From: Leptospiraceae bacterium
GTDB lineage: Bacteria > Spirochaetota > Leptospiria > Leptospirales > Leptospiraceae
Direction: 5' to 3'
Assembly: GCA_016718635.1 (NCBI GenBank)
Contig: JADKCW010000009.1
Span: 1 to 38,186 of the forward strand
DNA: 38,186 nt
In this document: piece after piece, positions 4,634 to 28,976 of the stretch
Numbering within the stretch: the first letter of the stretch is position 1
Layout: each line of letters opens with the position of its first letter
Position numbers and translations under genes: made by a program
The notes under the pieces: model-generated
What the model was told of the DNA's origin: nothing
The model's database searches: none
Seen by the model: the letters and a program-made list of their open reading frames with translations, nothing else

Positions 4634-6740
4634 TTAATTATCCGCGTCGCCATCTATGAAATTTTCCACATACGAAAGCAATTTCTCTGGCTTATTCGCC
4701 TTCTTCCAATTACCCGCAACGAACTTATTTGCTTCTGACATCGTTGGATATGTATGAATTGTTCCTAATATTTTATTTAGACCAAGTCCATGTTTCATAG
4801 CGAGAACATACTCCGCAAGCAAGTCTCCTGCATGTGCGGATACTATAGTTACTCCCAATATTTTATCGGTTCCTATTTTGGTCAGGACTTTTATGAATCC
4901 ATTTGCCTCACCATCGGCAATAGCTCGGTCGAGTTCTCCAATATCATATTGACTCAATTCTATTTCAATATTCTTTTCTTTTGCTTCGGCTTCCGTTAAG
5001 CCTACATGAGCAACTTCTGGGTCCGTGAATGTTGTCAAGGTATAACGCTGTAATCCGCTTTAAACTTTTAGCAAATCCAAAAGTGCATTGACCGAGGCAT
5101 ACCATGCTTGATGAGATGCGGTATGTAAATTGATAAGGTCCTGCCGCGTCTCCGCAAACAAATATATTTGGAAAATTCGTTCGTAAAAATTCATCTGTCT
5201 CAATCGTTCCATTCGGATTTAAGCGAATTCCCAATTCTTCGATTCCAAATCCTTTTGTTCTTGCCTTTCTCCCGATAGCAAGGATTACTTCATCAAATTT
5301 GATTTCTACTTTGTTGCCATTAGCCTCACAAATTACAGAATTCACTTTTCCTTTTTAAATTCTATGGCTTTATGTGATGTTAAAATTTTAGCCTCTTTTT
5401 TCCAGGCTTCCTTTATGAAGGCAGAAACATCAAATCTTCTTTGGGCATGATTCGCTCCCCCATTTCAACTAACGCTAGTCGGAACCAGTCTAGAAAATGC
5501 TTGCGATAATTCACACCAATCGGTCCCCAGGATAGAAGTTTCTGCATTTTTTAAATCCCAGAGCGTCTCGAGGTGAGATATTTTATTTCATTTAGTCCAG
5601 AATATTTGGAATATAAGGCTCCGCACCGAGCGATTACGATTGATTTTGCGCTATATTCTTTACCATTAATAGAAACAACGTAGGGCTAACAATCTTTGCA
5701 TCTCCCGAAAAACATTCTACGCCTAATTTCGTATAACGCTCCACAGAGTCATTTGGTTCAATTTTTTTAACTACACCGGCAACTCTTTTCATTACGGTAG
5801 CAAAATCAAATTCAATCTTTGCAGACTTAATTCCATACTCTGCAATTCTTTTCTCTGTGTGAATTTTCTTAGCAACTGCAATGAGTGCTTAGAGGGAACA
5901 CATCCATAGTTCAGACAATCGCCACCCATCTTATGTCTTTCGACTAACGCAACCTTAGCCTTAACTGTAGCCGCAATATAAGAAGTTACAAGTCCAGCGG
6001 CTCCTGCTCCAATTACAATTAGATTGTAATCAAATGAATTTGGCTTTTTATAGTTCTTGTAAATCTTTTGATTTTTTAAATATGCAATGATGGATTTACC
6101 AAATAAAGGAAGAATGCCAAGGGCAACAAATGAAAAAAGTAGATTTGGAGAAAGAATGTCCTTTAAGGAGCTAATGCTTGCTAGTTGCGTGCCGGCATTT
6201 ACATAAACGATAGTTCCCAAAAGCATTCCAATTTGGCTGACAAAAAAGAAAACAAACACTGAAATGTCTGTTAGCCCCATCAATACATTAATCAAGAAGA
6301 AAGGAAAAATAGGAATCATTCGCAGTGTAAAAAGATAAAAAGCACCGTCTTGACGCACACCTTTATCAATAGCAGTCAATTTATCAGAAAATTTTTCTCG
6401 TAGAGTATCTCGAAATAGATATCTAGAAATTAGAAACTGAGAGTAGCACCAATAGTGCTAGCGAAGGAAACAAGGATTACACCCTTCAGGAGACCAAATA
6501 AAGCACCACTACCAATGGTTAAAATCGTAGCACCTGGCAAAGCAACCGCTACAGAAATTATATAAAGCAAGATATAAGCAGAAATGAATAGAATTTCATT
6601 TTTTGCGCATAATAGCTATTTAACAGTTCTTTATTACTCTTCAAAGATTCAAAAGATAAATATTCTTGCAAACCATAATACCTTGCAAGCACAATGAGTG
6701 CAATCACGGAGAGGATAATCAAGAGTTTCTTTAGTTTCAT
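4634..6740 (-). pseudogene. DedA/TVP38-family membrane domain fused to a class I pyridine nucleotide-disulfide oxidoreductase (dihydrolipoamide-dehydrogenase or mercuric-reductase-like), multiply frameshifted
   Basis: The minus-strand ORFs 6558..6740, 5792..6379, 4965..5345 and 4634..5038 are collinear pieces. They give an N-terminal TM/DedA-like segment, then ..YNLIVIGAGAAGL.. (FAD-binding GxGxxG), ..GGDCLNYGCVPSK.. (redox-active CxxxxC) and a C-terminal dimerisation region (..HTYPTMSEA..). No open frame covers 5345..5792. Confidence 0.55.
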
Positions 6741-8835: not shown

Positions 8836-9736
8836 ATGAATTATAAAAAATAGTATTAGCCGGTGGGACTGGTTTTGTGGGAAAATACCTAAAGACAAAG
8901 TTTAGTGAATTGGGTTACGAAGTAAAAATTATTTCGAGGCAAAATGATAGTATCCAGTGGGATGATATTTCTTCCATCGTTGATGCCCTTGACAATTCAG
9001 AAATGCTAATTAACCTCGCAGGAAAATCCGTCGATTGTCGTTATAACAAAAAAAATAAAGAAGAAATTTTGAAATCAAGAACAGAAACTACCAGAATACT
9101 CGGAGAAGCGATTTTGAAATGTAAGAATCCTCCCGAACTTTGGATCAATTCTAGCACGGCAACCATTTACCGTCATGCGCAAGATCGACCAATGACAGAA
9201 AGCGGTGGAGAAATAGGAAGTGGATTTTCAGTTGGTGTAGCAACTCAATGGGAAAAACATTTTTTGATTTTCAATTACCAAAGACTAGACAAGTTGCTTT
9301 ACGCATGGCAATCGTTTTAGGAAAAGAGGGGGGAGTCATGACACCCTTTAAAAATCTAGTTCGCTTTGGTTTAGGCGGCAAACAAGGCGATGGAAATCAA
9401 ATGTTCAGTTGGATTCATATTGAGGATTTATTTACTATTATCCGCTTCTTACAATCCAATAAAAATATGACAGGGGCTTACAACTGTTCATCTCCCAATC
9501 CAGTTTCCAATGCCACTTTAATGCAATCACTAAGAAAGGCAATGAATGTAAAATTTGGTTTACCATCTCCTAAATTTCTTCTAGAAATTGGGGCAATCAT
9601 GATAAGAACAGAAACGGAGCTAATCTTAAAAAGCCGCTGGGTCATTCCAGAAAGATTACTGAAAGCGGGATTTCAATTTCAATTTTCTAATATTGACAAG
9701 GCGCTAGAAAATATTTTAATAGAAAAAGGGAGATAG
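8836..9736 (+). CDS. YfcH-like (TIGR01777/DUF1731) NAD-dependent epimerase/dehydratase family protein, two frameshifts
   Basis: MNYKK then, after a missing base in an a6 run, IVLAGGTGFVGKYL (Rossmann GxxGxxG). This continues as ORF 8877..9320 and then ORF 9248..9736 (..RQVALRMAIVLGKEGGV..RFGLGGKQGDGNQMFSWIHIEDL..). The second shift is in aaaaaacattttttg. Confidence 0.55.
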
Positions 9737-10162: not shown

Positions 10163-10738
10163 ATGAAAACAGCTATTTCGATTCCTGATGATTTATTTAA
10201 GACAGCAGAAAAAACAGCAAAGAAAATGGGTATTCCCAGAAGCCAGTTGTTTGCTCGGGCACTCGAAGAATTTATTCAGACACACAGTAAAAATTCTGTA
10301 ACAGAAAAATTGAACAAAATATACAGCAAGAATTTACCAAAATCTAAAACAAGTATTGATAAAGTATCTGTTCAGGCACTTCGCAAGAGTTTAAAAATGA
10401 CACGTGGTGAGATTTGGTGGGTTGATTTAGGTATTCCATTTGGAAGTGAACCAGGATTTAAAAGACCTGTATTAATTATTCAAGACGACGCATTTAATGA
10501 AAGTAATATTAGCACAATCATTGTTGCTGCTATTTCCTCTAATCTTATTCTTGCCGAAGCTCCAGGCAATGTTCTTTTAAACAAGAAAGAATCAAATCTT
10601 TCAAAAGATTCCGTTGTAAATGTTTCACAAATTGTTACTTTAGATAGAGAGAGATTCACTGAACGCGTCGGAAAATTAAATCCGAAGCTAATGGCAAATG
10701 TTGAAAGGGGAATCAAATTAGTTGTAGGTATTAAATGA
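10163..10738 (+). CDS. Single ORF encoding an RHH/MazE-like antitoxin N-terminus fused in frame to a MazF/PemK-family endoribonuclease toxin domain
   Basis: N-terminus MKTAISIPDDLFKTAEKTAKKMGIPRSQLFARALEEFI is a ribbon-helix-helix. From internal Met 78, MTRGEIWWVDLGIPFGSEPGFKRPVLIIQDDAFN...VSQIVTLDRERF has MazF/PemK hallmarks. There is no stop codon between the two halves. Confidence 0.55.
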   Translation: MKTAISIPDDLFKTAEKTAKKMGIPRSQLFARALEEFIQTHSKNSVTEKLNKIYSKNLPKSKTSIDKVSVQALRKSLKMTRGEIWWVDLGIPFGSEPGFKRPVLIIQDDAFNESNISTIIVAAISSNLILAEAPGNVLLNKKESNLSKDSVVNVSQIVTLDRERFTERVGKLNPKLMANVERGIKLVVGIK

Positions 10739-12880: not shown

Positions 12881-13192
12881 ATGACTAAAAAAATAAAAAA
12901 CATTCATCCCGGTGATGTGCTAAAAGAAGAATTTTTAATTCCAATGAGCATCTCTGTTTATAAATTAGCAAAGGAAACCGGACTTTCGCAAACAAGACTC
13001 TGGCAGATCATTCGCGGTGAACGATCAGTAACCGCAGAGACAGCTTTAAAGCTAGGTAAATTTTTTAGTATCGAGCCTGAGTTTTGGCTCAATCTTCAAA
13101 ACTATTTTGACTTAGAAGAATCTAGAAAGCATTTTGCTAAAGAGCTGAAATCAATTCAAAGCATTCAAGAATTAGGTTTGATTCAAGCTTAG
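12881..13192 (+). CDS. higA: HigA antitoxin (XRE-family HTH)
   Basis: 103 aa. ..IHPGDVLKEEFLIPMSISVYKLAKETGLSQTRLWQIIRGERSVTAETALKLGKFFSIEPEFWLNLQNYFDL.. is the typical HigA/VapI HTH. It starts 15 nt after higB. Confidence 0.7.
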   Translation: MTKKIKNIHPGDVLKEEFLIPMSISVYKLAKETGLSQTRLWQIIRGERSVTAETALKLGKFFSIEPEFWLNLQNYFDLEESRKHFAKELKSIQSIQELGLIQA

Positions 13193-13311: not shown

Positions 13312-13869
13312 TCAAGTTCGGATTCGACTCAAAGTTTCTTTTGTGATTCCGAGATAGGATGCGATATGACCCAACTTAACCCGACGAAACAAGGTTGAAT
13401 TCTTTTCTAGGAAGTGTGCATAACGAGCTTTAGCCGATTGAAACTGAAACGAGTTGGCTCTTTCCTCTAACTCAACATAGTATTTTTCAATAAAGATTCG
13501 ACCGAGCATATTTAATTCTGCATACGTGGAATACAGTTCATTTAGATCTTTGTAAGAAATAAAATCAAGCTCTGAATCTTCTAAGGCTTCAATAGTTTCG
13601 AGAGAAGGATTTCGAGACACAAAAGAATACATAGAAGTTACAAATTCATTTTCTTTCGCAAACCAATTCGTAACATCTTTTCGTTTGTGCATAGAGAATC
13701 CCCGAAACAAACCCTTGCGAATAAAGTAGAGGTTATCGGCTATTTGCCCATGACTTAATAAGATTTCTTTTTTGGAGATGCTAATAAATGCGGTTTTAGA
13801 TTGAATTGCTTTTTTTGTTTTTTCTTTTACTTGAATAAATGAGTTAATCGCATCTAAAAGATTTTTCAT
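13312..13869 (-). CDS. Crp/Fnr-family transcriptional regulator (cNMP-binding domain plus C-terminal HTH)
   Basis: 185 aa. The effector domain has ..NLYFIRKGLFRG.. and the C-terminal HTH is ..RVKLGHIASYLGITKETLSRIRT. Confidence 0.65.
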   Translation of the reverse strand: MKNLLDAINSFIQVKEKTKKAIQSKTAFISISKKEILLSHGQIADNLYFIRKGLFRGFSMHKRKDVTNWFAKENEFVTSMYSFVSRNPSLETIEALEDSELDFISYKDLNELYSTYAELNMLGRIFIEKYYVELEERANSFQFQSAKARYAHFLEKNSTLFRRVKLGHIASYLGITKETLSRIRT

Positions 13870-14683: not shown

Positions 14684-17600
14684 ATGTTAGAGGATTTAAA
14701 AATTTCAACGAAGCTTAGGCTGGGATATGGATTAGTTATATTTTTCCTCGTCATACTAAGCACTATTGTGTTCTATTTGATGAGTCATTTGGGAGGAAGT
14801 TTGGAGAAAATTACCAAAGTGTATTCACCTAAAGTTGTCCGAAGCAATAATATTATTGACCGCGTCAATGAAAATACAATTTACCTACTCAGCGCAACAC
14901 TAAAAGAATCGAGAGAAGAAGTATTGCTTGCAAAAGATAGAATTCTGCAAAACCGTTCAGGCAATGTGCAAGATATTCAGTTTCTCCGTGAAAATGCAAA
15001 TACGGAAAAGGAAAGATTTGGCATACAGGAATTAGCCGATGCAAGAACAAAATTCATTCCCTATCAGGACAAATACATTTCGCAATTAGAAGTAGGCGAC
15101 TACAAAGGAGCAAAAGATACTTTACCTCAATTCTCAGTTACTCAGCAGCAATATTTGAAAGCGGTAAAAGATTTAATCGTATATGAAACAGAGCTGTCTA
15201 CTACTGCCAATCAAGAGTCACTCAATGATTCTCAAAAAAGCGAGTTCCTATGTGCTAGTTATATCGTCTATCGCTATTCTTTTTTCTATCTTCTTCAGTT
15301 ACATGACTTCAAATTCTATTACGAAACCGTTAGCCGCTCTACTCCTTGCTATTCGCAAAGTGGAAAAAGAAGGAGAATTTTCTATTAAAGTAGATTCAAC
15401 CTCCAAGGATGAAGTAGCAGAGGTCGCTAACTCACTCAGTAGTTTGTTAGCAATGCTAGAGAATATGAAAAAGATACTATGTTACTTACAGAATCTGCCA
15501 TTCAGGGAAAACTTTCTACTCGTGCAGATATTTCTCGTTATCCCGGTGACTTTAGAAAGGTTGTAGAAGGGGTTAATAAGACATTAGACGCTGTGATTGG
15601 ACCTTTAAATGTTGCCGCAGATTATGTAGATAAAATATCCAAAGGAAATATCCCTTCCAAAATCACCGATACCTACAACGGAGATTTTAACACTATCAAA
15701 AATAATCTCAACACTTGCATTGGCTCCCTTTTGGGTATTATTGAATCCATGAATGATATGTCCAAACAGCATGAACTGGGAGACATTGATGTAAAAATTG
15801 ACGTTTCAAAATTCCAAGGTGCATACCAAGAAATGGTTACTGGTATCAATAAAATGGTATTTGACCATATTAGCGTTAAAAAAAGAGCAATGGGAATTTT
15901 TAAAGAATTTGGAGAAGGAAATTTTGAGGCAAATATTGATAAGCTACCTGGCAAAAAAGCTTTCATCAATGAAATAATTGATCAAGTCCGATTGAACCTA
16001 AAAGCGTTGATTAGTGATGCTGGAAAATTGGCAGATGCTGCTGTCAAAGGTCAATTAGCTACGCGTGCCGATGCAACCAAACACAAAGGAGACTTCCGTA
16101 AAATTGTCGAAGGGGTTAACGCTACATTAGACGCAGTTATTACACCTTTAAACGTTGCCGCTGATTATGTAGACAAAATCTCTAAAGGAATTATTCCTCC
16201 CAAAATTACAGAGAGTTATAATGGAGATTTTAATACTATTAAGAATAACTTAAACCTACTCATTGACTCTGAAAGTCTGCTTACCAATGTAGCCTCTTCT
16301 CTATCTATTGGAAATACAGAAGTCAGAATTGAAATGAGATCACAAGGAGACTCCCTATTCAAGAATATCCAAAGTATGATTGCAAATACCCAACATGATG
16401 CCGCCGTTGTTCAAAGTTTAGCGGAGGGAAATCTAGATGTCGAAATAAAAGTCATGTCAGATAAAGACATCATGGCAAAGAGTAACGTTGCCATTCGAAA
16501 TGCACTGAAAGAACTAGTTGCCGATGCTAATATGCTTTCCCGCGCGGCTATTGAAGGTAAGCTTTCAACAAGAGCAGATGCATCAAAACACAAAGGCGAT
16601 TTCCGAAAAGTAGTCGAAGGGGTTAATCAGACATTAGACGCTGTAATCAGTCCAATGCAGGAATCCTCCAACGTATTATTGGAATTAGCCAAAGGAAATC
16701 TAAGTGCAAGAGTCAACGGTGATTACAAAGGCGATCATGCCATCATCAAGAATGCTTTAAATTCCAGTCTCGAAACTTTAAACGAATATGTGGGAGAAAT
16801 TTCCAGAGTCCTGTCTTCCATGTCTTCGGGCGACTTAACTATCGAGATTAAGAAAGCGTTTAATGGTGATTTTGCGGAAATCAAAGAAGCTTTAAAGCTT
16901 ATCATTGAATCGTTCAATGATTTGATCGGGGAAATCATCGATGCATCGGAGCAAATCTTTATTAGCTCTAGGCAAGTTGCCGACTCCAGCCAATCTCTCT
17001 CACAAGGCTCTAACGAACAAGCAAGCAGTGTAGAAGAAATAACTGCTACTCTTGCTGTCATAGAACTCAAAGCTAAGGATAATGCCAATAATGCGAAGAA
17101 TGCTAGTGATCGCGCTCTCAATGTAAAAGACCAAGCAGTATCAAGCAATAACGAAATGAAAGGGATGCTCAAAGCAATGGAAGAAATTAGCGAAACATCC
17201 GAAAACATTGCTAAGATTATCAAAGAAATTGATGCAATTGCATTCCAAACAAACATACTCGCATTAAACGCTGCTGTAGAAGCAGCACGTGCAGGACAAC
17301 ATGGAAAAGGATTTAACGTAGTTGCAGAAGAAGTCCGTAACCTCGCATCTCGTAGTGCCAATGCTGCAAAAGAAACTACTAAGATGATTGAAGGTTCGAT
17401 TAAAACTGTTCGTTCTGGTATGGACATTGCGGGAAGAACTGCAGGCGAATTAAACAAGATGACTGCAGGTGTTGTAGAAGTGACAGACCTGGTGAAAGAC
17501 ATTGCAGCGGCATCTATGGAGCAATCTTCTTCTGTTGTAGAGACGACCTCTGGCATCAATCAGATTTCGCAGGTGACTATGAGTGCAGCCGCAACAGCAG

Positions 17601-17749
17601 AAGAAAGTTCTGCGGCTAGTCTTGAGTTGTCGAGCCAAGCAGAAGCATTTCAAAATATGGTAAAACGTTTCAATATTAAAAGGGGAAAAGAGGAAAAAAA
17701 GAAAGAAGCACCGCTAACAACGGGGAAAAGAAAGATTAACCTCAAATAA
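14684..17749 (+). CDS. Methyl-accepting chemotaxis protein 1: TM1, four-helix-bundle periplasmic sensor, TM2, HAMP repeats, MCP signalling domain; two frameshifts
   Basis: ORFs 14684..15388, 15183..15566 and 15479..17749 are collinear pieces. They give TM1 ([16 protein letters not shown]), a helical periplasmic domain, TM2 plus HAMP (..[42 protein letters not shown]..), repeated ..[58 protein letters not shown].. units, and a highly conserved MCP signalling domain (..[46 protein letters not shown]..). A Shine-Dalgarno site aagagga precedes the ATG. Confidence 0.75.
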
Positions 17750-17811: not shown

Positions 17812-20520
17812 ATGTTTCAAAATTATCAATTAAATCTAAGCTTATTTTTAGTTTTATAGGAGTGCTTTTCTTATTCTTGGGAACAGCAATATATAATTTA
17901 TTTGGATTAAACGAAATTCAGCATTCGGTCAATGATATTGTCAATGATAGAATTCCAAAGATTCTAACTTTGCATGAAATGAATAATAATATTAATCAGA
18001 CAGCCCGTTCCACTAGAAGTATACTTTTACTGGAAGATATAAAAGAAATTCAGAAGGAAAGAGATATTATTATTAATATCAGAGACGAAAAGAATCCAAG
18101 GATCATTGAATATTTAAAGACTGTAGTTAGACGCGAAAGAGGAAAAGAATTATTAGCCGATGTAATGAAGACGAGAAGTGCATATGTAGAGACTTTAAAT
18201 CAGTATTTAGATTTATTCGATAGTGGCAAAAAGAAGAGGCAAAGAAATTACTTCTATCAGAACTAAGACCAAGACAGCATGATCTTTCAAAAGCAGTAGC
18301 AAGTTTCAGTGATTACCAAAAGATATTATTACTTCAGAAGGCGCAAAGACAGATGCAAGTGTAAAGAAAATATTTTTAGCCTTTTCTATCATTTCCATTC
18401 TTGCGACAATCATCATCATACTCGTTACGATTTTTACCACGAAGAGCATCAATCGCATTACTTCAAGAATGGATCAATTTATTTCTGATATAAATATTTT
18501 TGTTGTTGGTTTAGAATCAAAAGGCGATTTTTCTTCTAGATTACAAGTTACTCATAATGATGAGATGGGCAAAACATCAGAAGCCTTGAATCGATTGATG
18601 AATATGTTTCAGACAATGCTTACAGAAACTAATATGCTTTCTAAAGCAGCTATAGAAGGAAGACTAAGCACAAGAGCCAAGATCGATTCTTATATTGGTG
18701 ATTTTAAGAGTATTCTAGAAGGGGTTAATAAGACGATTGATTCATTAGTTGGATTTCTAGATCAAATGCCAATTCCAGCAATGATTATTGACAAGGAATA
18801 CAATGTTCTTTATATGAATTCCGCCGGTGCAAAATTAAATGGACGAACAGGTAAAGAATTAACAGGAACAAAATGCTTTGATCATTTTAAGACGAATGAC
18901 TGTAAAACGGAAAATTGTGCCTGTTATTTGACAATGCGGGATAATCGAAATATTGCGCGAGATAACGTAGCAAGACCTGGAAATTTAGTCTTAGATATTA
19001 ATTATTCTGCCGTTCCTATCAAGAACGAAAAGGGAGAAGTTGTTGCTGCCTTTGAAGTTGTAATGGATCAAACCCAAATTAAAAATGCGATGGGAGTTTC
19101 CAAAAAGATTGGAGAATACCAAATCAAAGAAGTTACAAAATTAGTTGACGCATTAGGGAAATTGGAGAATGGAAATACAAGTATTGCCATCAAACCAGAA
19201 GAATCAGATCAAGATACTAAATTGGTTAAAGAGCAATATGAAAAAATTTATGTATCACTTGAGCAAACCGTTCAAGCACTTACACTTTTAGTGACAGATG
19301 CTAATATGCTTTCCCGCGCAGGCATTGAAGGTAAACTTTCAACAAGAGCAGATGCATCAAAGCACAAAGGCGATTTCCGAAAAGTAGTCGAAGGAATTAA
19401 TCAAACGTTAGACGCTCTAATTCTTCCGACTCAGGAAGCGACTAACGTATTAGTGGAGTTGTCTAAAGGAAATTTAAAATCCAAAGTTACCGGAGACTAT
19501 AAAGGTGACCATGCAATTCTTAAGAATGCGCTCAACTCAAGCCTCGGAACACTCAATGAGTATGTAGGAGAAATTTCTAGAGTTCTTTCTTCTATGTCGG
19601 CGGGCGACTTAACTGTTGAAATAAAAAAAGAGTTTAATGGTGATTTTGCGGAAATCAAAGAAGCCTTAAAACTTATCATTGAATCTTTCAATGACTTGAT
19701 CGGAGAGATCATGGATGCATCGGAGCAAATCTTTGTTAGCTCCAGACAAGTTGCTGATTCGAGTCAATCTCTTTCACAAGGATCAAATGAGCAAGCGAGT
19801 AGTATAGAAGAAATTACTGCTACTCTCTCTCTCATAGAACTCAAAGCTAAGGATAATGCCAATAATGCGAAGAATGCAAGTTATCGTGCTCTCAATGTAA
19901 AAGACCAAGCAGTATCAAGCAATAACGAAATGAAAGGGATGCTCAAAGCAATGGAAGAAATCAGTGAAACTTCTGAAAACATTGCTAAGATTATCAAAGA
20001 AATTGATGCAATTGCATTCCAAACAAACATACTCGCATTAAACGCCGCTGTAGAAGCAGCACGTGCAGGACAACATGGAAAAGGATTTAACGTAGTTGCA
20101 GAAGAAGTCCGTAACCTCGCATCTCGTAGTGCCAATGCTGCAAAAGAAACCACTAAGATGATTGAAGGTTCAATTAAAACGGTTCGTTCAGGTATGGACA
20201 TTGCGGGAAGAACTGCGGGCGAATTAAACAAGATGACTGCGGGTGTTGTAGAAGTTACTGATCTTGTAAAAGACATTGCAACAGCATCTGTCGAACAATC
20301 TTCTTCCGTTGTAGAGACCACTGCTGGCATCAATCAGATTTCGCAGGTGACTATGAGTGCAGCCGCAACAGCAGAAGAAAGTTCTGCGGCTAGTCTTGAG
20401 TTGTCGAGCCAAGCAGAAGCATTTCAAAATATGGTAAAAAGATTTAATATCAAAAAAACAAGAGATGATAAGAAAAGAGACGCGCAGACAACCGCAAAAA
20501 GAAGAATTGAACTGAAATAA
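17812..20520 (+). CDS. Methyl-accepting chemotaxis protein 2, with a Cys-rich PAS-like insert; at least three frameshifts in the N-terminal third
   Basis: MFQNYQLN.. then ..FIGVLFLFLGTAIYNLFGLNEIQHSVNDIVNDRIPKILTLHEMNNNINQTAR.. parallels the MCP3 N-terminus ([56 protein letters not shown]). TM2 and HAMP follow (..FLAFSIISILATIIIILVTIF..). There is a PAS-like insert FLDQMPIPAMIIDKEYNVLYMNSAGAKLNGRTGKELTGTKCFDHFKTNDCKTENCACYLTMRDN...VVAAFEVVMDQT. Then come HAMP repeats and a signalling domain about 97% identical in nucleotide sequence to that of MCP1. Confidence 0.75.
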
Positions 20521-20530
20521 GGAGAAGTTT

Positions 20531-21028
20531 ATGGTAACAGCAACAGTAGATGAAGAAATAGAGGAAGACTCACAGGATACGATGGAAGATTTATATATTA
20601 TCTTTTTCATTGATGGAAGAGAATATGGAATAGAGATTCGTTACTTGATTGAAATCATTGCATTTCAACCCGTTACATTTGTTCCAAATCTTCCTAAGTA
20701 TGTAAAGGGAGTCCTTAACTTACGAGGAAAAATTATTCCTGTTCTAGATGTGCGAACCCGATTTGGAATGCCGTCGATCGACTATACCGAGAATACTTGC
20801 ATATTAATTCTAAACTTTAACAACTTAAGTGCCAGTCTGATTGTCGATGGAGTCAAAGAAGTATTAAAAATTCCAAAAGATAATATTGAGCCTTCGCCTG
20901 GATTCGAAGAAGCTAATGTAGAACGATTCGTAGATTCCATCGGTAAGTCCGGTGACACCTTGAAAATATTGATCAATGTTGAAAAATTCATTCATGAGAA
21001 AGATATAAAGGAAATTATTGCTCCTTAA
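20531..21028 (+). CDS. cheW: CheW coupling protein (copy 1)
   Basis: 165 aa. ..YIIFFIDGREYGIEIRYLIEIIAFQPVTFVPNLPKYVKGVLNLRGKIIPVLDVRTRFGMP..ILILNFNNLSASLIVDGVKEVLKIPKDNIEPSP.. is a canonical CheW. A Shine-Dalgarno site aaggag is 11 nt after the MCP2 stop. Confidence 0.85.
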   Translation: MVTATVDEEIEEDSQDTMEDLYIIFFIDGREYGIEIRYLIEIIAFQPVTFVPNLPKYVKGVLNLRGKIIPVLDVRTRFGMPSIDYTENTCILILNFNNLSASLIVDGVKEVLKIPKDNIEPSPGFEEANVERFVDSIGKSGDTLKILINVEKFIHEKDIKEIIAP

Positions 21029-21334: not shown

Positions 21335-24300
21335 ATGTTTAAAAACCTAAGTATTAAAAACAAATTATTATCACTGTTTATAGGAATCATTCTTTTTTTT
21401 GCAGGTTTGATTTTCTATTCTATAAAACAGATGGATTCTGTCGCAGCAGTTGCAGACAAATTGGCAAATGATAGAATTCCCAAAGTAATGGCTTTAGCGG
21501 AGATTTCGAAGAATGTCAATATCATTGCAAGAGCCGCTCGGAACATGTATATCTTCAGAGAAAAATCAATGGTTGATGAAGAAAAAAATACCATTCTCAA
21601 ATCCAGAGAAATCATCGGACAAAAATTTGACTATTTAAAGCCCATTATCAAAAATCCAAAAGGACAGGAGATTTTGACAGAGGCAATGCAGACTCGCTCC
21701 GAGTTTATCAAAGCGCAAGACTCTTTTATTTCCGCAATCGAAAGGGATGACAAAGACGAAGCTTACAATATATTAATCAAAGACTTCCGTCCTATTCAAT
21801 TAAAATACATCGGTCACTTAGATAAATTATTAGAATTTCAAGCCACCTTTGCTCAAAATGAAGCAAACCTGTCTGTAGGAAATATAATCGAAGTTACCAA
21901 TAGAATATCATGGATTTCTATTCTATTTGGAATACTCGTAGCTTATCTTGGTTATACAATCGTAACCTCCATTCTTAATTCCATTCGTAATCTGGAAAAA
22001 AATGTCAATGAAATCGGGAAAGAAGGTAACTTTGATACAAAAATAGAAACCGATTCTACAGATGAAATCGGGGTATTTGCCGGAAGCTTTAAAGAGATGA
22101 TGAAAGGTATGAAGGACATGCTCGCTGATGCCAACATGCTTTCCCGCGCTGCCGTTGAAGGAAGACTTGCTACAAGAGCGGACGCAACGAAATACAAAGG
22201 TGATATGCGCAAAATTGTAGAAGGGGTTAATCAGACATTAGACTCTGTAATCAATCCTCTCAACGTTGCTGCTGATTACGTAGAGAAAATCTCTCGTGGT
22301 GCTATCCCTGCTAAAATTACTGACACTTACAACGGTGATTTCAATGTTCTTAAAAACAACATAAACAATGCTATTGATAATGTAAACGCACTTGTGGCTG
22401 ATGCCGGTATGCTTGCGAAAGCAGCAGTAGAAGGTAAACTTGCAACTCGCGCTGATGCTACTAAGCACCAAGGCGATTATCGCAAGATTGTAGAAGGGGT
22501 TAACCAGACATTAGACTCTGTAATCAATCCTCTCAACGTTGCCGCTGATTATGTAGATAAAATCTCCCGTGGTGCAATACCTGCTAAGATTACAGATCAA
22601 TACAACGGTGACTTTAACGTTCTAAAGAACAACTTAAACAATGCAATTGATAATGTAAACGCACTTGTGGCTGATGCCAGTATGCTTGCGAAAGCAGCAG
22701 TAGAAGGTAAGCTTGCAACACGTGCTGATGCTACTAAACACCAAGGCGACTATCGTAAGATTGTAGAAGGGGTTAACCAGACATTAGACTCTGTTATCAA
22801 TCCTCTCAATGTTGCAGCAGATTACGTTGATAAAATATCCCGTGGCGCAATCCCTGCAAAGATTACTGACACTTACAATGGTGACTTTAACACAATTAAG
22901 AACAACTTGAACAACGCTATCGACAATGTAAATTCACTTGTGGCTGATGCCGGTATGCTTGCGAAAGCAGCTATCGAAGGTAAGCTTGCAACTCGTGCTG
23001 ATGCTACTAAACACCAAGGCGACTATCGTAAGATTGTGGAAGGAGTTAATCAGACGTTAGACTCGGTGATTGGACCTCTCAATGTTGCAGCGGATTATGT
23101 AGATAAAATTTCCCGTGGTGCTATTCCTGCTAAGATTACCGACACTTACAACGGTGACTTCAACGTTCTAAAGAACAACTTAAACAATGCAATTGATAAT
23201 GTAAACGCACTTGTGGCTGATGCCGGTATGCTTGCGAAAGCAGCCGTAGAAGGTAAACTTGCAACTCGTGCTGATGCTACTAAACACCAAGGCGATTATC
23301 GCAAGATTGTAGAAGGGGTTAATCAGACGTTAGACTCTGTTATCAATCCTCTCAACGTTGCCGCTGATTATGTAGACAAAATTTCTCGTGGTGCAATACC
23401 TGAAAAAATCACTGCTACTTACAATGGTGACTTTAATACAATTAAGAATAACTTAAACAATGCGATTGATAATGTAAACGCACTTGTAGCTGATGCCGGT
23501 ATGCTTGCGAAAGCAGCAGTAGAAGGTAAACTTGCAACTCGTGCTGATGCTACTAAACACCAAGGCGACTATCGTAAGATTGTGGAAGGGGTTAATCAGA
23601 CATTAGACTCTGTTATTGGTCCTCTTAACGTTGCCGCGGATTATGTAGATCGTATTGCGAAAGGAAACACACCTCCAATTATTACTGATACGTATAATGG
23701 CGATTTCAACACTCTAAAGAATAACCTCAATTTGGCGATCAATGCGATTAACCAACAAGCAGAGGCAGCAGTTGCCATTTCTGAAGGAAATCTCTCCGTC
23801 AAAGTAAATGTTCGCTCTGAAAATGATTTACTCTCAAAGAGTTTAATCACTGTTATGCAAGTCTTGCAAGCCTTACAAAAAGAATTACTTCGTCTTACAG
23901 AAGCCTCTAAAGCAGGTATGTTAGATGAAAGAGGAAAACCAGAACAATTCAAAGGTGCCTATGCAGATGTTTTAATTGGCGTAAACACAATGCTCGATGC
24001 GATTCTAATTCCAATAGGGGAAGGAAATAGAGTATTAAGACTTATTAGAGGCGGAAATTTACGGGAACGAGTAGAGATTGAATGTCGTGGTGATCATCAA
24101 AAAATGAAAGATGCCGTCAACGGAGTCATTTGTGGCTTACTGATCTTGTAGCCTATGTAAATAAGATATCTAACGGTGATTTGACTGCAACAATGAACAA
24201 AGCTTCCGAACAAGATCAAATTCATGAGTGGTTGATGCTAATGAAAAATAATATCGGCAACCTCGTCTCTGATGCCGGTATGCTTTCAAAAGCGGCTATC

Positions 24301-26586
24301 GAAGGTAAGCTTGCAACACGTGCTGATGCTACTAAACACCAAGGTGACTATCGTAGAATTGTAGAAGGGGTTAATCAGACGTTAGACTCGGTAATCGGTC
24401 CTCTTAACGTTGCTGCTGATTATGTTGATAAAATCTCTCGTGGTGCTATCCCTGAAAAGATCAGCGATACTTATAACGGTGACTTTAATGTTATCAAGAA
24501 CAACTTAAACAATGCGATTGATAATGTAAACGCACTTGTGGCTGATGCCGGTATGCTCGCGAAAGCAGCTATTGAAGGTAAGCTCGCAACACGTGCGGAT
24601 GCAACTAAACACCAAGGCGACTATCGTAAAATTGTAGAAGGGGTTAATCAGACGTTAGACTCTGTGATCGGTCCTCTCAATGTAGCCGCTGATTATGTTG
24701 ATAAAATCTCTCGTGGTGCTATTCCTGCTAAGATTACTGACACTTACAACGGTGACTTCAACGTTATCAAGAACAACTTAAACAATGCGATTGATAATGT
24801 AAACGCACTTGTGGCTGATGCCGGTATGCTTGCGAAAGCAGCAGTAGAAGGTAAGCTTGCAACTCGCGCTGATGCGACTAAACACCAAGGCGATTATCGT
24901 AAAATTGTAGAAGGAGTTAACCAGACGTTAGACTCTGTGATAGGTCCTCTTAATGTTGCCGCGGATTATGTAGATAAAATTTCCCGCGGGGCTATTCCGA
25001 CTAAGATTACGGATACTTACAATGGAGACTTTAACACAATTAAAAACAACTTAAACAACGCAATTGATAATGTAAATGCTCTCGTGGCTGATGCCGGTAT
25101 GCTTGCGAAAGCAGCTATTGACGGTAAGCTTGCAACACGTGCAGATGCTACTAAACACCAGGGCGACTATCGTAGAATTGTGGAAGGAGTTAATCAGACA
25201 TTAGACTCGGTGATCGGTCCACTTAACGTTGCTGCTGATTATGTAGATAGAATTTCTCGCGGTGCAATTCCAAATCAAATTACGGATACTTATAATGGGG
25301 ATTTTAACACTCTAAAGAACAACCTTAATCGTTGTATTGAAAACGTAAACGCACTTGTGGCTGATGCAGGTATGCTTGCGAAAGCGGCTATTGATGGTAA
25401 GCTTGCAACTCGTGCAGATGCGACCAAACACCAAGGTGACTTCCGTAAGATTGTGGATGGGGTAAACAACACATTAGACGCTGTTATCCTTCCAGTGCAA
25501 GAAGCTTCCGCAGTGTTGCTAGAATTGTCTAAAGGAAACTTAAAAGCTAGAATGCTCGGTGATTACAAGGGAGATCATGCTACTATTAAGACTGCTCTTA
25601 ATACAAGTCTGGTAACGTTAAACGATTATGTGGGGGAAATTTCGCGTATCCTCTCTTCTATGTCAGCAGGTGACTTAACTGTTGAAGTAACAAAAGACTT
25701 TATGGGAGATTTCGCTGAGATTAAAAAAGCACTCACTCTCATCGTTGATTCCTTCAATGAGCTCATTGGTGAAATCATCAATGCTTCGGATCAAATCCTC
25801 ATTAGCTCTAGACAAGTGGCTGACTCCAGCCAATCTCTCTCGCAAGGATCAAACGAACAAGCTAGTAGCGTAGAAGAGATTACTTCAACGCTGGCAGTAA
25901 TCGAACTCAAAGCTAAGGATAACGCGAAGAATGCGAAGGACGCAAGTGACCAAGCTATGAACGTGAAAGACCAAGCAGTTTCTAGTAATAACGAAATGAA
26001 GGGAATGCTCAAAGCGATGGAAGAAATCAGTGAAACTTCCGAAAACATTGCGAAGATTATCAAAGAAATTGATGCAATCGCATTCCAAACAAATATACTC
26101 GCATTAAACGCTGCGGTGGAAGCTGCCCGTGCAGGTCAACATGGAAAAGGATTTAACGTGGTGGCGGAAGAAGTTCGTAATCTCGCTTCTCGTAGCGCGA
26201 ATGCTGCGAAAGAAACCACTAAGATGATTGAAGGCTCGATTAAAACAGTTCGCTCTGGTATGGACATTGCGGGAAGAACTGCAAACGAATTGAATAAGAT
26301 GACAGCTGGTGTTGTAGATGTTACAGAGCTAGTGAAAGACATCGCGAGTGCTTCGATTGAGCAGTCTTCGTCGGTAGTAGAGACTACAACTGGTATCAAT
26401 CAGATTTCACAGGTGACAATGAGTGCTGCTGCTACAGCAGAAGAAAGCTCAGCAGCTAGTCTTGAGTTGTCTAGCCAAGCAGAAGCATTCCAAACAATGG
26501 TAAAAAGATTTCAAATTAAGAAATCAAAAGATGATAAAAGAAGAGACCAACAATCTGGCGGAAAGAAAAAAATTGATTTGAAGTAA
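21335..26586 (+). CDS. Giant poly-HAMP methyl-accepting chemotaxis protein 3 (about 1750 aa if read through one frameshift at about 24125)
   Basis: ORF 21335..24151 plus ORF 24130..26586. A +1 shift in ggagtcatttgtggcttactga restores ..[27 protein letters not shown]... Architecture: TM1, 4HB-type periplasmic domain, TM2, HAMP, 6 tandem di-HAMP units, a divergent HAMP-like linker of about 170 aa, 5 more di-HAMP units, 2 HAMP, then the MCP signalling domain and a KR-rich tail. Confidence 0.8.
22127..23765 (+). repeat. Tandem array of six near-identical 273-nt (91-aa) coding repeats, each a di-HAMP unit, within MCP3
   Basis: Unit starts (gatgcc...) at 22127, 22400, 22673, 22946, 23219 and 23492. 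The period is exactly 273 nt. The unit is [91 protein letters not shown]. Each unit holds two HAMP-like helix-connector-helix segments of alternating type. Confidence 0.85.
24271..25635 (+). repeat. Second tandem array of five 273-nt di-HAMP coding repeats within MCP3
   Basis: Unit starts at 24271, 24544, 24817, 25090 and 25363. The last unit diverges (..[24 protein letters not shown]..). Confidence 0.85.
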
Positions 26587-26598
26587 GGAGTAAAGTGT

Positions 26599-27087
26599 AT
26601 GGTAACGACATTTGAAGAAGAACAATTAGAAGAATCTGAAGATACTATGGAGGATCTCTATATCATCTTTTTCATCGATGGAAGAGAGTATGGTATAGAG
26701 ATTCGTTACTTGATTGAAATCATTGCGTTTCAACCTGTGACTTTTGTTCCAAACTTACCAGAATATGTTAAGGGAGTAATCAACCTTCGAGGGAAGATTA
26801 TTCCCGTAATTGATGTGCGGCTAAGATTCGGTTTACCCAAGATAGACTATACCGAATTCACCTGCATATTGATTATGAATTTTAACAATCTAAGTGCAGG
26901 GCTTATCGTCGATGGAGTCAAAGAAGTTTTAAAAATTCCAAAAGATTGTATTGAGCCCTCACCAGGATTTGAAGAAGCAAATATGGAGCGATTCGTCGAT
27001 TCCATTGGAAAGTCAGGCGATACATTGAAAATATTGATCGACCTGAATAAGTTTATTCATGAGAAAGATGTAAAAGGAATTGCTTAG
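26599..27087 (+). CDS. cheW: CheW coupling protein (copy 2, paralogue of 20531..21028)
   Basis: 162 aa, roughly 85% identical to copy 1 (..YIIFFIDGREYGIEIRYLIEIIAFQPVTFVPNLPEYVKGVINLRGKIIPVIDVRLRFGLP..). Confidence 0.85.
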   Translation: MVTTFEEEQLEESEDTMEDLYIIFFIDGREYGIEIRYLIEIIAFQPVTFVPNLPEYVKGVINLRGKIIPVIDVRLRFGLPKIDYTEFTCILIMNFNNLSAGLIVDGVKEVLKIPKDCIEPSPGFEEANMERFVDSIGKSGDTLKILIDLNKFIHEKDVKGIA

Positions 27088-27095
27088 GTTCTACA

Positions 27096-28976
27096 ATGCT
27101 TGGAGAAAATGAACTTTCAGACCTTGTGCTTGATTCACAAGAGATATTGGATAAAGCAGAAGCAATTCTGATCCAATTGGAAAAAAGTTTAACTGAGTCA
27201 ACGGTTGACGCAGATAAGGTAAATTCATTATTCCGCTATTTCCATACACTCAAAGGAAATGCGGGATTTTTCAATTTCAATGTGATAGTAAACCTATCGC
27301 ATTCAGCAGAATCATTATTAGAGATTGTAAGAAATGACAATTCTCTTCTTGATCAAAAAATGATTCAGCTCTTCATGGAAGCAAGAGATACTCTATACGA
27401 AATATTCACAAATTTAAACGAAAACAAAACAGATACAATGTATAAAGAGAAGGCGGATACTTTAATTCCCCGACTCTTCTATATAAAAGAAAATCTAAAA
27501 GCAGAGTCTTCAGAGCCAAAGAAAGAAGAGCCTAGGTTTGGAATCTTCAAAAAGAAAATTGTGCTTTCTGATACTCCAATAACAGAAGAGGATAATAAGG
27601 AGTTGCCAGTTTCGAATGAACCTGCCCCTACTCCGGAAAATTCAGAATCTGATAAGTTAGATAAACATATTACAGAGAGAGCCACGCAAGAAAATCCTGT
27701 TTTAGAAAAAAAGATTCAAAATACTATAGAGGCAAATAACGGTAATTCGAATGGACAAGCTACAGTAAAAAGAGACATTCGAATCGAAACAGAGAAATTA
27801 GATTACCTACTAGACATGATTGGTGAGCTAGTGATAGCTGAATCTCTTGTAACTCAAAATCCAGACATCAAAGAACTAGATCTTCCGAACTTTTCTATTC
27901 AATCTTCCTATTTACGTAAAGTAGTCCGTAATCTACAAGAAGTATCCTTGCAGCTAAGGATGATTACCCTCGAAGGTTTGTTTAATAAAATGGAACGACT
28001 TGTTCGAGACTTAGCACAAAAAACAGGAAAGAAAGTGGGTCTTCAAGTTACGGGAAAAGAAACAGAAATTGATAAGAATGCCCTTGAAATATTAACAGAT
28101 CCACTAGTTCATATTATCCGCAACTGTATCGATCATGGATTGGAAACAGGCAAAGAGAGATTAGCCAAAGGCAAAGTAGAATCCGGTCATATCAAGATTG
28201 AAGCAATGCATTCAGGAAATGAAGTATGGATTATTATTTCTGATGATGGTGCAGGCTTAGATAGAGATAGAATTTTGAAAAAAGCAATGGCTCGCGGATT
28301 AATCAAAGAAGGAGAAGACGAAAATCTAAAAGACGAAAGAATTTGGGATTTTATTTTTCAACCTGGATTCTCGACTAGTGATAGAGTAACTGATATTTCA
28401 GGACGCGGAGTAGGACTTGATATAGTTCGCAGAAATATAGCAAAGATCAACGGCGATGTTGAAATCAAGACGAAAAAAGACCAGGGAGCATCGTTCATTC
28501 TAAAGCTACCTCTTACAATTGCTATCATTGAAGGTATGGTGGTAATCTACAACGGGGTATTCTATATTATCCCCACAATAGACGTAAAAGAAACACTGAA
28601 TTTGGCAGAATCGAAAATCGACTATATCGATCAGGACAAAAAAGTAATTCGCTTCCGAGAGCAGCTAATACCCGTTGTCTCCGTAGAGAGATTACTCAAT
28701 CACGATTCAAGTGACAAGGACTCTAACTACGAAAATTCTTTATATGTAATTATTGTGGAGTATAAGAATAATTCGCTAGCCCTAGTATTTGATGGAATTG
28801 TAGGAAATCAATCGGTTGTAATTAAACCAATTCCAGATTATTTAAAAGGAACAAAGGGCTTTTCAGGTTGCACAATCCTGGGAAGTGGGAATATTGGAAT
28901 GATTCTAGACATTAGATTCTTTATTAATAATTACTACAAGGAAAACAAAGAATCCGAAGCAGCACATGGACAATAA
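27096..28976 (+). CDS. cheA: CheA histidine kinase (P1 HPt, P3 dimerisation, P4 HATPase, P5 CheW-like; no obvious P2)
   Basis: 626 aa. The HPt region is ..FRYFHTLKGNAGFFNF... P3 is ..IRIETEKLDYLLDMIGELVIAESLV... P4 has ..HIIRNCIDHGLE.. and ..GRGVGLDIVRRNI... P5 is ..LPLTIAIIEGMVV..SLALVFDGIVGNQSVVIKPI... Confidence 0.9.
   Translation: MLGENELSDLVLDSQEILDKAEAILIQLEKSLTESTVDADKVNSLFRYFHTLKGNAGFFNFNVIVNLSHSAESLLEIVRNDNSLLDQKMIQLFMEARDTLYEIFTNLNENKTDTMYKEKADTLIPRLFYIKENLKAESSEPKKEEPRFGIFKKKIVLSDTPITEEDNKELPVSNEPAPTPENSESDKLDKHITERATQENPVLEKKIQNTIEANNGNSNGQATVKRDIRIETEKLDYLLDMIGELVIAESLVTQNPDIKELDLPNFSIQSSYLRKVVRNLQEVSLQLRMITLEGLFNKMERLVRDLAQKTGKKVGLQVTGKETEIDKNALEILTDPLVHIIRNCIDHGLETGKERLAKGKVESGHIKIEAMHSGNEVWIIISDDGAGLDRDRILKKAMARGLIKEGEDENLKDERIWDFIFQPGFSTSDRVTDISGRGVGLDIVRRNIAKINGDVEIKTKKDQGASFILKLPLTIAIIEGMVVIYNGVFYIIPTIDVKETLNLAESKIDYIDQDKKVIRFREQLIPVVSVERLLNHDSSDKDSNYENSLYVIIVEYKNNSLALVFDGIVGNQSVVIKPIPDYLKGTKGFSGCTILGSGNIGMILDIRFFINNYYKENKESEAAHGQ

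Follow-up and report, generated by a model that had tools for sequence, protein, structure and literature searches.

In a 38,186-nt stretch of Leptospiraceae DNA (contig JADKCW010000009.1 of assembly GCA_016718635.1; hereafter the window), the region at 21335..26586 on the forward strand reads as one gene for a poly-HAMP methyl-accepting chemotaxis protein (MCP). With a probability of about 0.8, we take it to encode a 1750-residue transmembrane chemoreceptor-type poly-HAMP receptor that is intact in the organism and whose repeat array is both real and old. As assembled, the gene is split into two open reading frames (ORFs) that abut at a frameshift, 21335..24151 (938 aa) and 24130..26586 (818 aa), both on the forward strand. 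Duplicating a single base at 24126 repairs a 1-nt deletion and fuses both ORFs into a 1750-residue protein, and two orthologues, P0005 and P0007, run uninterrupted over the same junction. A first-pass annotation, made from the sequence alone, had proposed a single MCP of about 1750 aa at these coordinates; the repaired protein, with its sensor, HAMPs, and MCPsignal domain, bears this out.

The repaired protein, whose features all lie on the forward strand, opens with a predicted periplasmic 4HB_MCP_1 sensor (21344..21865, residues 4-177; Pfam PF12729, E = 3e-15) flanked by two hydrophobic segments in a Kyte-Doolittle plot: transmembrane segment 1 (TM1) on its N-terminal side (21347-21403, residues 5-23) and TM2 on its C-terminal side (21920-21976, residues 196-214). 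A canonical, membrane-proximal HAMP, H1, follows at 21965..22105 (residues 211-257; Pfam PF00672, E = 1.9e-22 in the whole protein and 1.6e-7 for the segment alone). Array 1 (22127..23764) is made of six 273-nt di-HAMP units, each joining a noncanonical A-type HAMP to a canonical B-type HAMP, with a divergent second half in unit 6. A nonrepetitive linker (23765..24270) then contributes four HAMPs, assigned by Pfam on segments and by hhalign: L1 (canonical), L2 (A-type), L3 (B-type), and L4 (canonical-like). Array 2 (24271..25635) adds five more 273-nt units, and the B half of its unit 5, which we call T1, is divergent. The stack closes with T2, a terminal canonical-type HAMP (25630..25779; Pfam HAMP_2 on the segment, E = 9e-8) that stands right before the kinase-control domain, the MCP signalling domain at 25945..26418 (Pfam PF00015, E = 6.8e-44, residues 606-763 of the second ORF).

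The repeats keep an exact period at the DNA level. Tandem Repeats Finder placed array 1 at 22208-23650 (period 273, 5.3 copies, 87% matches, 0% indels, score 2170) and array 2 at 24269-25488 (period 273, 4.5 copies, 86% matches, 0% indels, score 1640). Units start at 22127, 22400, 22673, 22946, 23219, and 23492 in the first array and at 24271, 24544, 24817, 25090, and 25363 in the second, all in frame, 273 nt apart, and 91 residues long, in agreement with the six plus five units, the period, and the start positions given in the first-pass annotation. Its description of these units as near-identical 273-nt repeats holds only for the protein. Nucleotide identity among units 1 to 10 is 74-92%, and the closing unit of each array is degenerate (66-78% identity to the others for unit 6 and 56-64% for unit 11), whereas the seven core units are 90-99% identical as protein. 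Among these core units the mean number of nonsynonymous substitutions per site (dN) is 0.033 and the mean number of synonymous substitutions per site (dS) is 0.71 (range, 0.41 to 1.22), which gives a dN/dS ratio of 0.047. Indeed, their differences are spread over codon positions 1:2:3 as 76:58:605, with 605 of the 739 at third positions, and the longest in-register exact run common to any two units is 59 nt. Values such as these do not support the earlier suggestion that identity between units was high enough to make the array unstable and easily misassembled.

The same synonymous differences speak to the age of the array. Middle units of two syntenic relatives are separated by similar distances (dS of 0.83 at locus L005 and 0.89 at L003), and only three L005 units appear more recent (93-95% identical, dS of 0.21). 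The flanking che genes give a dS of 0.11 to 0.43 between the window and a third relative, L001, and of 1.0 to 2.6 between the window and L005; set against these values, the divergence of the units implies that most of them date back to the split from L001 or earlier. By these measures the array is old and under purifying selection, and is not the product of recent amplification or of assembly expansion. Each unit has accumulated synonymous changes of its own while purifying selection kept the proteins almost alike. High protein identity between units has been read as a sign of recent amplification (PMC13446029, PMC10731501), and the deep synonymous divergence seen here qualifies that reading, arguing against it at least in this clade. 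The age of the repeats is thus the one result that goes past cataloguing: selection, rather than recency, keeps the modules alike.

Given that assemblies are well known to go wrong at tandem repeats, we considered whether units had been wrongly expanded or collapsed, so that the true gene would be much shorter or longer. The contigs of two short-read relatives do break within the receptor gene (L003 begins in it and L004 ends in it). However, every unit of the window is distinct, is at most 92% identical to any other, and differs from the rest mostly by private synonymous changes, and since artefactual copies would be identical, this argues that the array is not an assembly expansion. The period is exact, the reading frame is held across all 11 units, and arrays of comparable or greater length are common in public data. 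Moreover, the pattern of homopolymer deletions described below suggests a long-read assembly, and such reads would span the 3.6 kb concerned. We consider an assembly artefact very improbable. A real frameshift, leaving either a pseudogene or a split gene, is a less remote alternative, and one that we still judge quite unlikely. Were the split real, its products would be a 938-aa membrane protein with the sensor and about 16 HAMPs but without the kinase-control domain, and there might be a second, soluble poly-HAMP MCP of about 800 aa made from an internal start, like the sensor-less receptors in the literature. The deletion is present in the sequence as given, it lies in a TT dinucleotide, which is not a typical long-homopolymer error site, and soluble sensor-less poly-HAMP chemoreceptors do exist (P0004, P0001, and P0021 are without TM segments). 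Yet both orthologues are in frame at the deletion site, the frame downstream is fully conserved under purifying selection (signalling-domain dN of 0.016 against L001 and against L003), and the sole in-frame start listed for the second ORF is a TTG at 24130, around which no search for a translation signal was made.

The deletion itself can be placed at 24125..24126, within the linker, where the first-pass annotation had also put a single frameshift, at about 24125 in the nonrepetitive stretch between the arrays. At this site the window lacks one T, at 24126 (GT- CAT against GTT CAT in L001 and L002): it reads GGAG-TCATTTG, and the L001 and L002 DNA reads GGAGTTCATTTG, also given as GGAGTTCAT. 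P0005 and P0007, the orthologues from loci L001 and L002, carry the same sensor domain as the window receptor and read DAVNGVHLWLTDL across the site. Seven further 1-nt deletions, at 31091, 34848, 35058, 35997, 36151, 36287, and 36336, separate the window from L003, the Leptospiraceae metagenome-assembled genome (MAG) GCA_018057905.1, in which the flanking genes match those of the window at 99-100% identity. All seven are private to the window and fall in runs of 4 to 6 identical bases, and most are also apparent against L001. The one at 31091 cuts a histidine-kinase gene (30038-31102 as read) to 354 aa, compared to 415 aa in relatives, and those at 34848-36336 fragment a MASE1 kinase gene. 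These genes are intact in a genome whose flanks are 100% identical, which points to a high indel error rate in the window. Upstream, a VTT-domain/pyridine-nucleotide-disulphide oxidoreductase gene (4634-6379, reverse strand) is broken into at least three ORFs, an epimerase/DUF1731 gene (8877-9736, forward strand) is broken into two, and no ORF in the first 14.6 kb exceeds 280 aa; such split genes and short ORFs are consistent with many indel errors.

The window thus carries the signature of an indel-prone, presumably long-read, assembly. Because the orthologues are in frame and at least seven other private homopolymer deletions occur in the window, the MCP frameshift is most likely a base-calling or sequencing error in a gene that is intact in the organism, and its earlier standing as notable biology is not supported. 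Since the orthologues stay in frame without it, programmed frameshifting was rejected. The 938-aa ORF product had no match in an exact-sequence look-up, as would be expected if the truncation were private to this assembly. Occasional homopolymer errors are found in the relatives too: near the 5' end of the MCP gene, at a locus position of about 1230 (window position 21393), L002 has a run of T7 against T8 in the window and in L001, which probably explains why the annotated start of P0007 lies 24 residues later. In practice, the frameshift and several of the broken neighbours are best handled as assembly errors.

Within the repaired protein the HAMP order is H1, (A B) x 6, L1 L2 L3 L4, (A B) x 5, T2, a total of 28, and the earlier estimate of roughly 28 HAMP-like modules therefore stands. 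Pfam HAMP and HAMP_2 models recognise 26 of the 28 segments, and the remaining two, L1 and L4, are supported by hhalign profile-profile comparison (L1 to H1, 95%; L4 to B-type, 91%). The same comparison matched L2 to A-type at 99.7%, L3 to B-type at 98%, and both T1 and T2 to B-type at 99.8%. HAMP_2 matches are fewer, 7 in the first ORF part and 6 in the second (13 in total; E = 3e-204 and 6e-163). In scans of isolated segments, the 67-residue HAMP_2 model spans the AS2 helix of an A-type HAMP plus the entire B-type HAMP; given that the model covers one helix and the next HAMP, one HAMP_2 match corresponds to one di-HAMP unit. Narrow A and B hidden Markov models (HMMs), built from the two halves of the repeat unit, found 11 A (noncanonical) and 10 B (canonical-like) positions in strict alternation inside each array. 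Both peptide motifs by which two alternating HAMP-like segments had originally been recognised in each 91-residue unit are present in all units.

Outside the repeats, the alternation is broken at three canonical-to-canonical junctions: unit 6 B/L1, L3/L4, and T1/T2. The first-pass annotation had expected a HAMP HMM to return 25 to 30 matches of alternating subtype, and the 26 recognised segments lie in that range, but the alternation does not extend to these junctions. L1 and L4 look like a shorter HAMP subtype. In a hand count on the repaired translation (23680-24290), the AS2-AS1 helix has 32 residues at regular junctions, 28 at unit 6 B/L1 and L3/L4, and 30 at L1/L2 and L4/unit 7 A. Compensation of helix register by the short junction helices at L1 and L4 was set aside as an explanation because the pattern is inconsistent at the T1-to-T2 junction.

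We modelled three units as a monomer with AlphaFold2, using a 41-sequence alignment, and obtained a mean predicted local distance difference test (pLDDT) score of 92.6; a single-sequence model (pLDDT of 50) was discarded, and only the alignment-based model was used. In the model, helices of 31 to 32 residues alternate with connectors of 13 to 14 residues, the pattern expected of concatenated HAMPs. Its top Foldseek matches in the PDB were the Aer2 poly-HAMP structures 4i44, 4i3m, and 3lnr (probability 1.0), followed by Af1503 HAMP chains (TM-score of 0.7 to 0.8), with weak E-values (0.008 to 0.05) that make these matches evidence of ranking only. By sequence, the best PDB match was the 6-HAMP crystal structure of AskA, 9TRK (E = 8.5e-12 over about 210 residues). 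Across the 41 aligned sequences, G15, G28, G36, G61, and G73 are invariant, and D74 and F75 of the GDF motif are near-invariant.

Large as it is, the receptor is not close to the upper extreme of poly-HAMP arrays, where the first-pass annotation had placed it. Searching with the repaired protein gave 2999 proteins at E <= 1e-20, the longest of 2368 aa. Scored with the narrow A and B HMMs, the window protein reaches 21; 40 of the 120 best public matches score higher, 10 of the 120 reach at least 28, and the maximum among them is 42 (P0004, 2255 aa). When a single unit was searched against 1.84 billion cluster representatives, 8261 relatives came up at E <= 0.001, and the top match had 16 matched di-HAMP stretches. 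By these counts the receptor is in the upper tail of a large family and not at its limit. The two-array layout is not unusual either: an L3-like match between arrays, flanked on both sides by two or more A-type HAMPs, was seen 37 times among the proteins examined, an approximate figure in that the search also caught T1-like segments near the C terminus.

Array length varies at syntenic loci of relatives, a comparison that the first-pass annotation had proposed among related strains. The window has six plus five di-HAMP units and a linker; L001 and L002 have 7 units and a linker with a HAMP_N3-containing insert, different from that of the window; L003, which belongs to the same species by its flanking genes, has 7 units and no linker; and L005 and L006 have about 10 to 11 units, no linker, and a different 4HB sensor. 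On this comparison, both the length and the composition of the array change between lineages, and unit number shifts over evolutionary time as di-HAMP units, and the linker module, are gained or lost. The L003 gene appears to be a highly divergent allele set in a background that is identical elsewhere. Between the window and L003, CheA, CheB, and CheY show a dS of 0.000 to 0.002, whereas the MCP signalling domain shows a dS of 0.59, the array units are only 85-92% identical (22127-26586 compared with L003:1-3368), and identity in the sensor is 98% at the 5' end and drops to 87%. Such an allele could be a recombinational import or could reflect a chimera of strains in the MAG. The short L003 array is not accounted for by simple recombinational deletion from the window allele, as its units differ by 8-15% from every window unit, nor was the L003 signalling domain converted from a window paralogue, to which identity is about 79%.

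It is possible, although we hold this only tentatively and rate it as doubtful, that the receptor gene is a strain-variable locus, with 7 units and about 16 HAMPs without a linker in one strain and 11 units and 28 HAMPs in another, and with units kept more than 90% identical as protein by selection and not by recent amplification. A scan of the genome contigs with the sensor domain yielded a single 2.6-kb contig that breaks off within the gene and permits no unit count. If the locus did vary in this way, it would offer a natural within-species length series of a sensor-coupled poly-HAMP receptor, which could be used to test whether, and in what way, signals pass over dozens of HAMPs and whether stalk length is a selected trait.

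From published work on HAMP domains we infer a relay of signal through the stack. A ligand-induced change in the sensor would enter at TM2 and H1, pass along a rod of contiguous AS2-AS1 helices in which noncanonical and canonical HAMPs take up opposite packing states, and end at the kinase-control tip, which would regulate CheA through CheW. The hairpin of this tip presumably couples to the CheW (26599-27087) and CheA (27096-28976) encoded directly downstream, given the domain content and the conserved operon context. At about 2.4 nm per HAMP, with 16 helix residues each, we estimate a stalk of about 65 nm, to which the hairpin would add about 18 nm. The usual distance from membrane to baseplate is 20 to 30 nm. 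The predicted stalk would thus be several times as long and would amount to much of the diameter of a thin, spirochaete-like cell. Both ideas in the first-pass annotation, a very long stalk and a modular mechanism of length variation, have already been discussed in PMC13446029.

The stack might instead be a rigid spacer that fixes the distance between the membrane and the CheA/CheW baseplate and keeps the array of this pathway apart from others, or it might itself be a sensor or modulator. Helices of 31 to 32 contiguous residues in the model would make a stiff rod rising by about 2.4 nm per HAMP. The cluster encodes a CheW and a CheA of its own, and HAMP_2 arrays are also found in its other receptors. 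In addition, array length varies by lineage while the gene is retained, and in the literature, where the function of poly-HAMP arrays is left open, modulation and intrinsic sensing have been raised as roles. On the other hand, a dN/dS of about 0.05 on every unit, with the type-defining residues of both HAMPs included, is more constraint than a passive spacer needs, and the dedicated sensor and canonical TM-proximal HAMP favour input from the N terminus. Receptors of the same cluster also differ much in array length (4 and 2 HAMP_2 matches, against 13), a poor fit to a single baseplate distance. We consider these alternatives to a relay somewhat unlikely.

Several points weigh against the reading of an intact, sensor-coupled receptor with a real array. 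The unit count is that of the assembled sequence alone, and the MCP deletion lies in a TT dinucleotide, unlike the other seven, which lie in longer homopolymers. The broken alternation at three junctions is unexplained by a simple alternating-toggle model alone. To our knowledge, signal transmission across 28 HAMPs has never been demonstrated experimentally in any receptor. Finally, the window showed no CheR gene, and an extra soluble histidine kinase is part of the operon, such that gene content does not settle the output pathway.

The receptor gene is embedded in a chemotaxis cluster with the order CheW, MCP, CheW, CheA, CheB, soluble histidine kinase, single-domain receiver, 830-aa vault-type protein, and MASE1 kinase. 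The upstream CheW (20531..21028, forward strand; Pfam CheW, E = 1e-31) lies in conserved synteny. Downstream, on the forward strand, CheW and CheB (28966-30045) were identified with Pfam and CheA with Pfam and NCBIfam, and all three are presumed signalling partners. This CheW/CheA/CheB layout around the MCP, continued by the histidine kinase and the receiver, is kept in L001, L002, L003, and L005. The 830-aa protein (31759-34251, forward strand) has a major-vault-protein shoulder, a vault repeat, and a weak Band_7 match, is without a match in an NCBIfam scan, and directly follows the gene for the receiver in each of the four related che clusters. Two further MCP genes, both of which look interrupted, lie upstream on the forward strand: one at 14684-17749 with 4 HAMP_2 matches plus HAMP_N3, scrambled at about 15260-15480, and one at 17862-20520 with a 4HB fragment, a PAS domain, and 2 HAMP_2 matches. 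The latter is directly followed by the CheW gene at 20531-21028, and these upstream MCP genes with HAMP_2 arrays form tandem MCP-CheW cassettes. Farther upstream are a MazF/PemK-type toxin domain (10163-10738, forward strand), an HTH_3 regulator (12881-13192, forward strand), and a cNMP-binding protein (13312-13869, reverse strand) that is syntenic with L006. Rfam and tRNA scans of the window found nothing.

Receptors of this class, including their alternating subtypes, di-HAMP repeats, and length variation, are already described (PMC13446029, PMC10731501). Chemoreceptor-associated poly-HAMP arrays correspond to HAMP groups A and B of Coles et al. 2026 (PMC13446029) and to the G1/F6 families of Dunin-Horkawicz and Lupas 2010 and Winski et al. 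2024 (PMC10731501). The window receptor resembles them in having di-HAMP modules, each noncanonical plus canonical, directly upstream of the methyl-accepting domain; in middle units that are more than 90% identical as protein, with divergent first and last units and a variable number of modules; and perhaps also in the Gly and GDF positions, invariant or near-invariant across the 41 aligned sequences. Such receptors have been described as soluble, with arrays that typically stand without an upstream sensor (PMC13446029), whereas the window receptor combines a 4HB sensor with two TM segments and, next to the membrane, a canonical HAMP. This combination of sensor and TM segments is common, as at least two TM segments were predicted in 58 of the 121 proteins examined. 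The window receptor further departs from the described class in that the protein identity of its units goes with a dS of about 0.7 and in that its alternation is broken at three junctions. Poly-HAMP arrays have been described but are functionally unexplained, and the window receptor offers a clean case in which one end carries a sensor and the other the kinase-control domain; with its syntenic relatives of differing unit number, it could serve as a test case.

Two other systems share parts of this architecture. Pseudomonas aeruginosa Aer2 (3LNR, 4I3M, 4I44) likewise has concatenated HAMPs joined by contiguous AS2-AS1 helices and of alternating packing types. Unlike the window receptor, Aer2 has five diverse HAMPs interrupted by a PAS-haem domain and is without near-identical di-HAMP repeats; the sequence match between the two is weak (E = 0.03), and Pfam found no PAS match in the window receptor. 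Kinase-type poly-HAMP proteins, such as Myxococcus AskA (9TRJ/9TRK) and the fungal hybrid histidine kinases of group III, are similar in their long di-HAMP arrays and equal inter-HAMP spacing. These arrays differ from that of the window receptor in belonging to HAMP groups C/D and in feeding a GAF-histidine-kinase-receiver output, and they are considered independent in origin. The window receptor has no HisKA, HATPase, or receiver domains by Pfam, and its output is the MCPsignal domain, which places it with the chemoreceptors.

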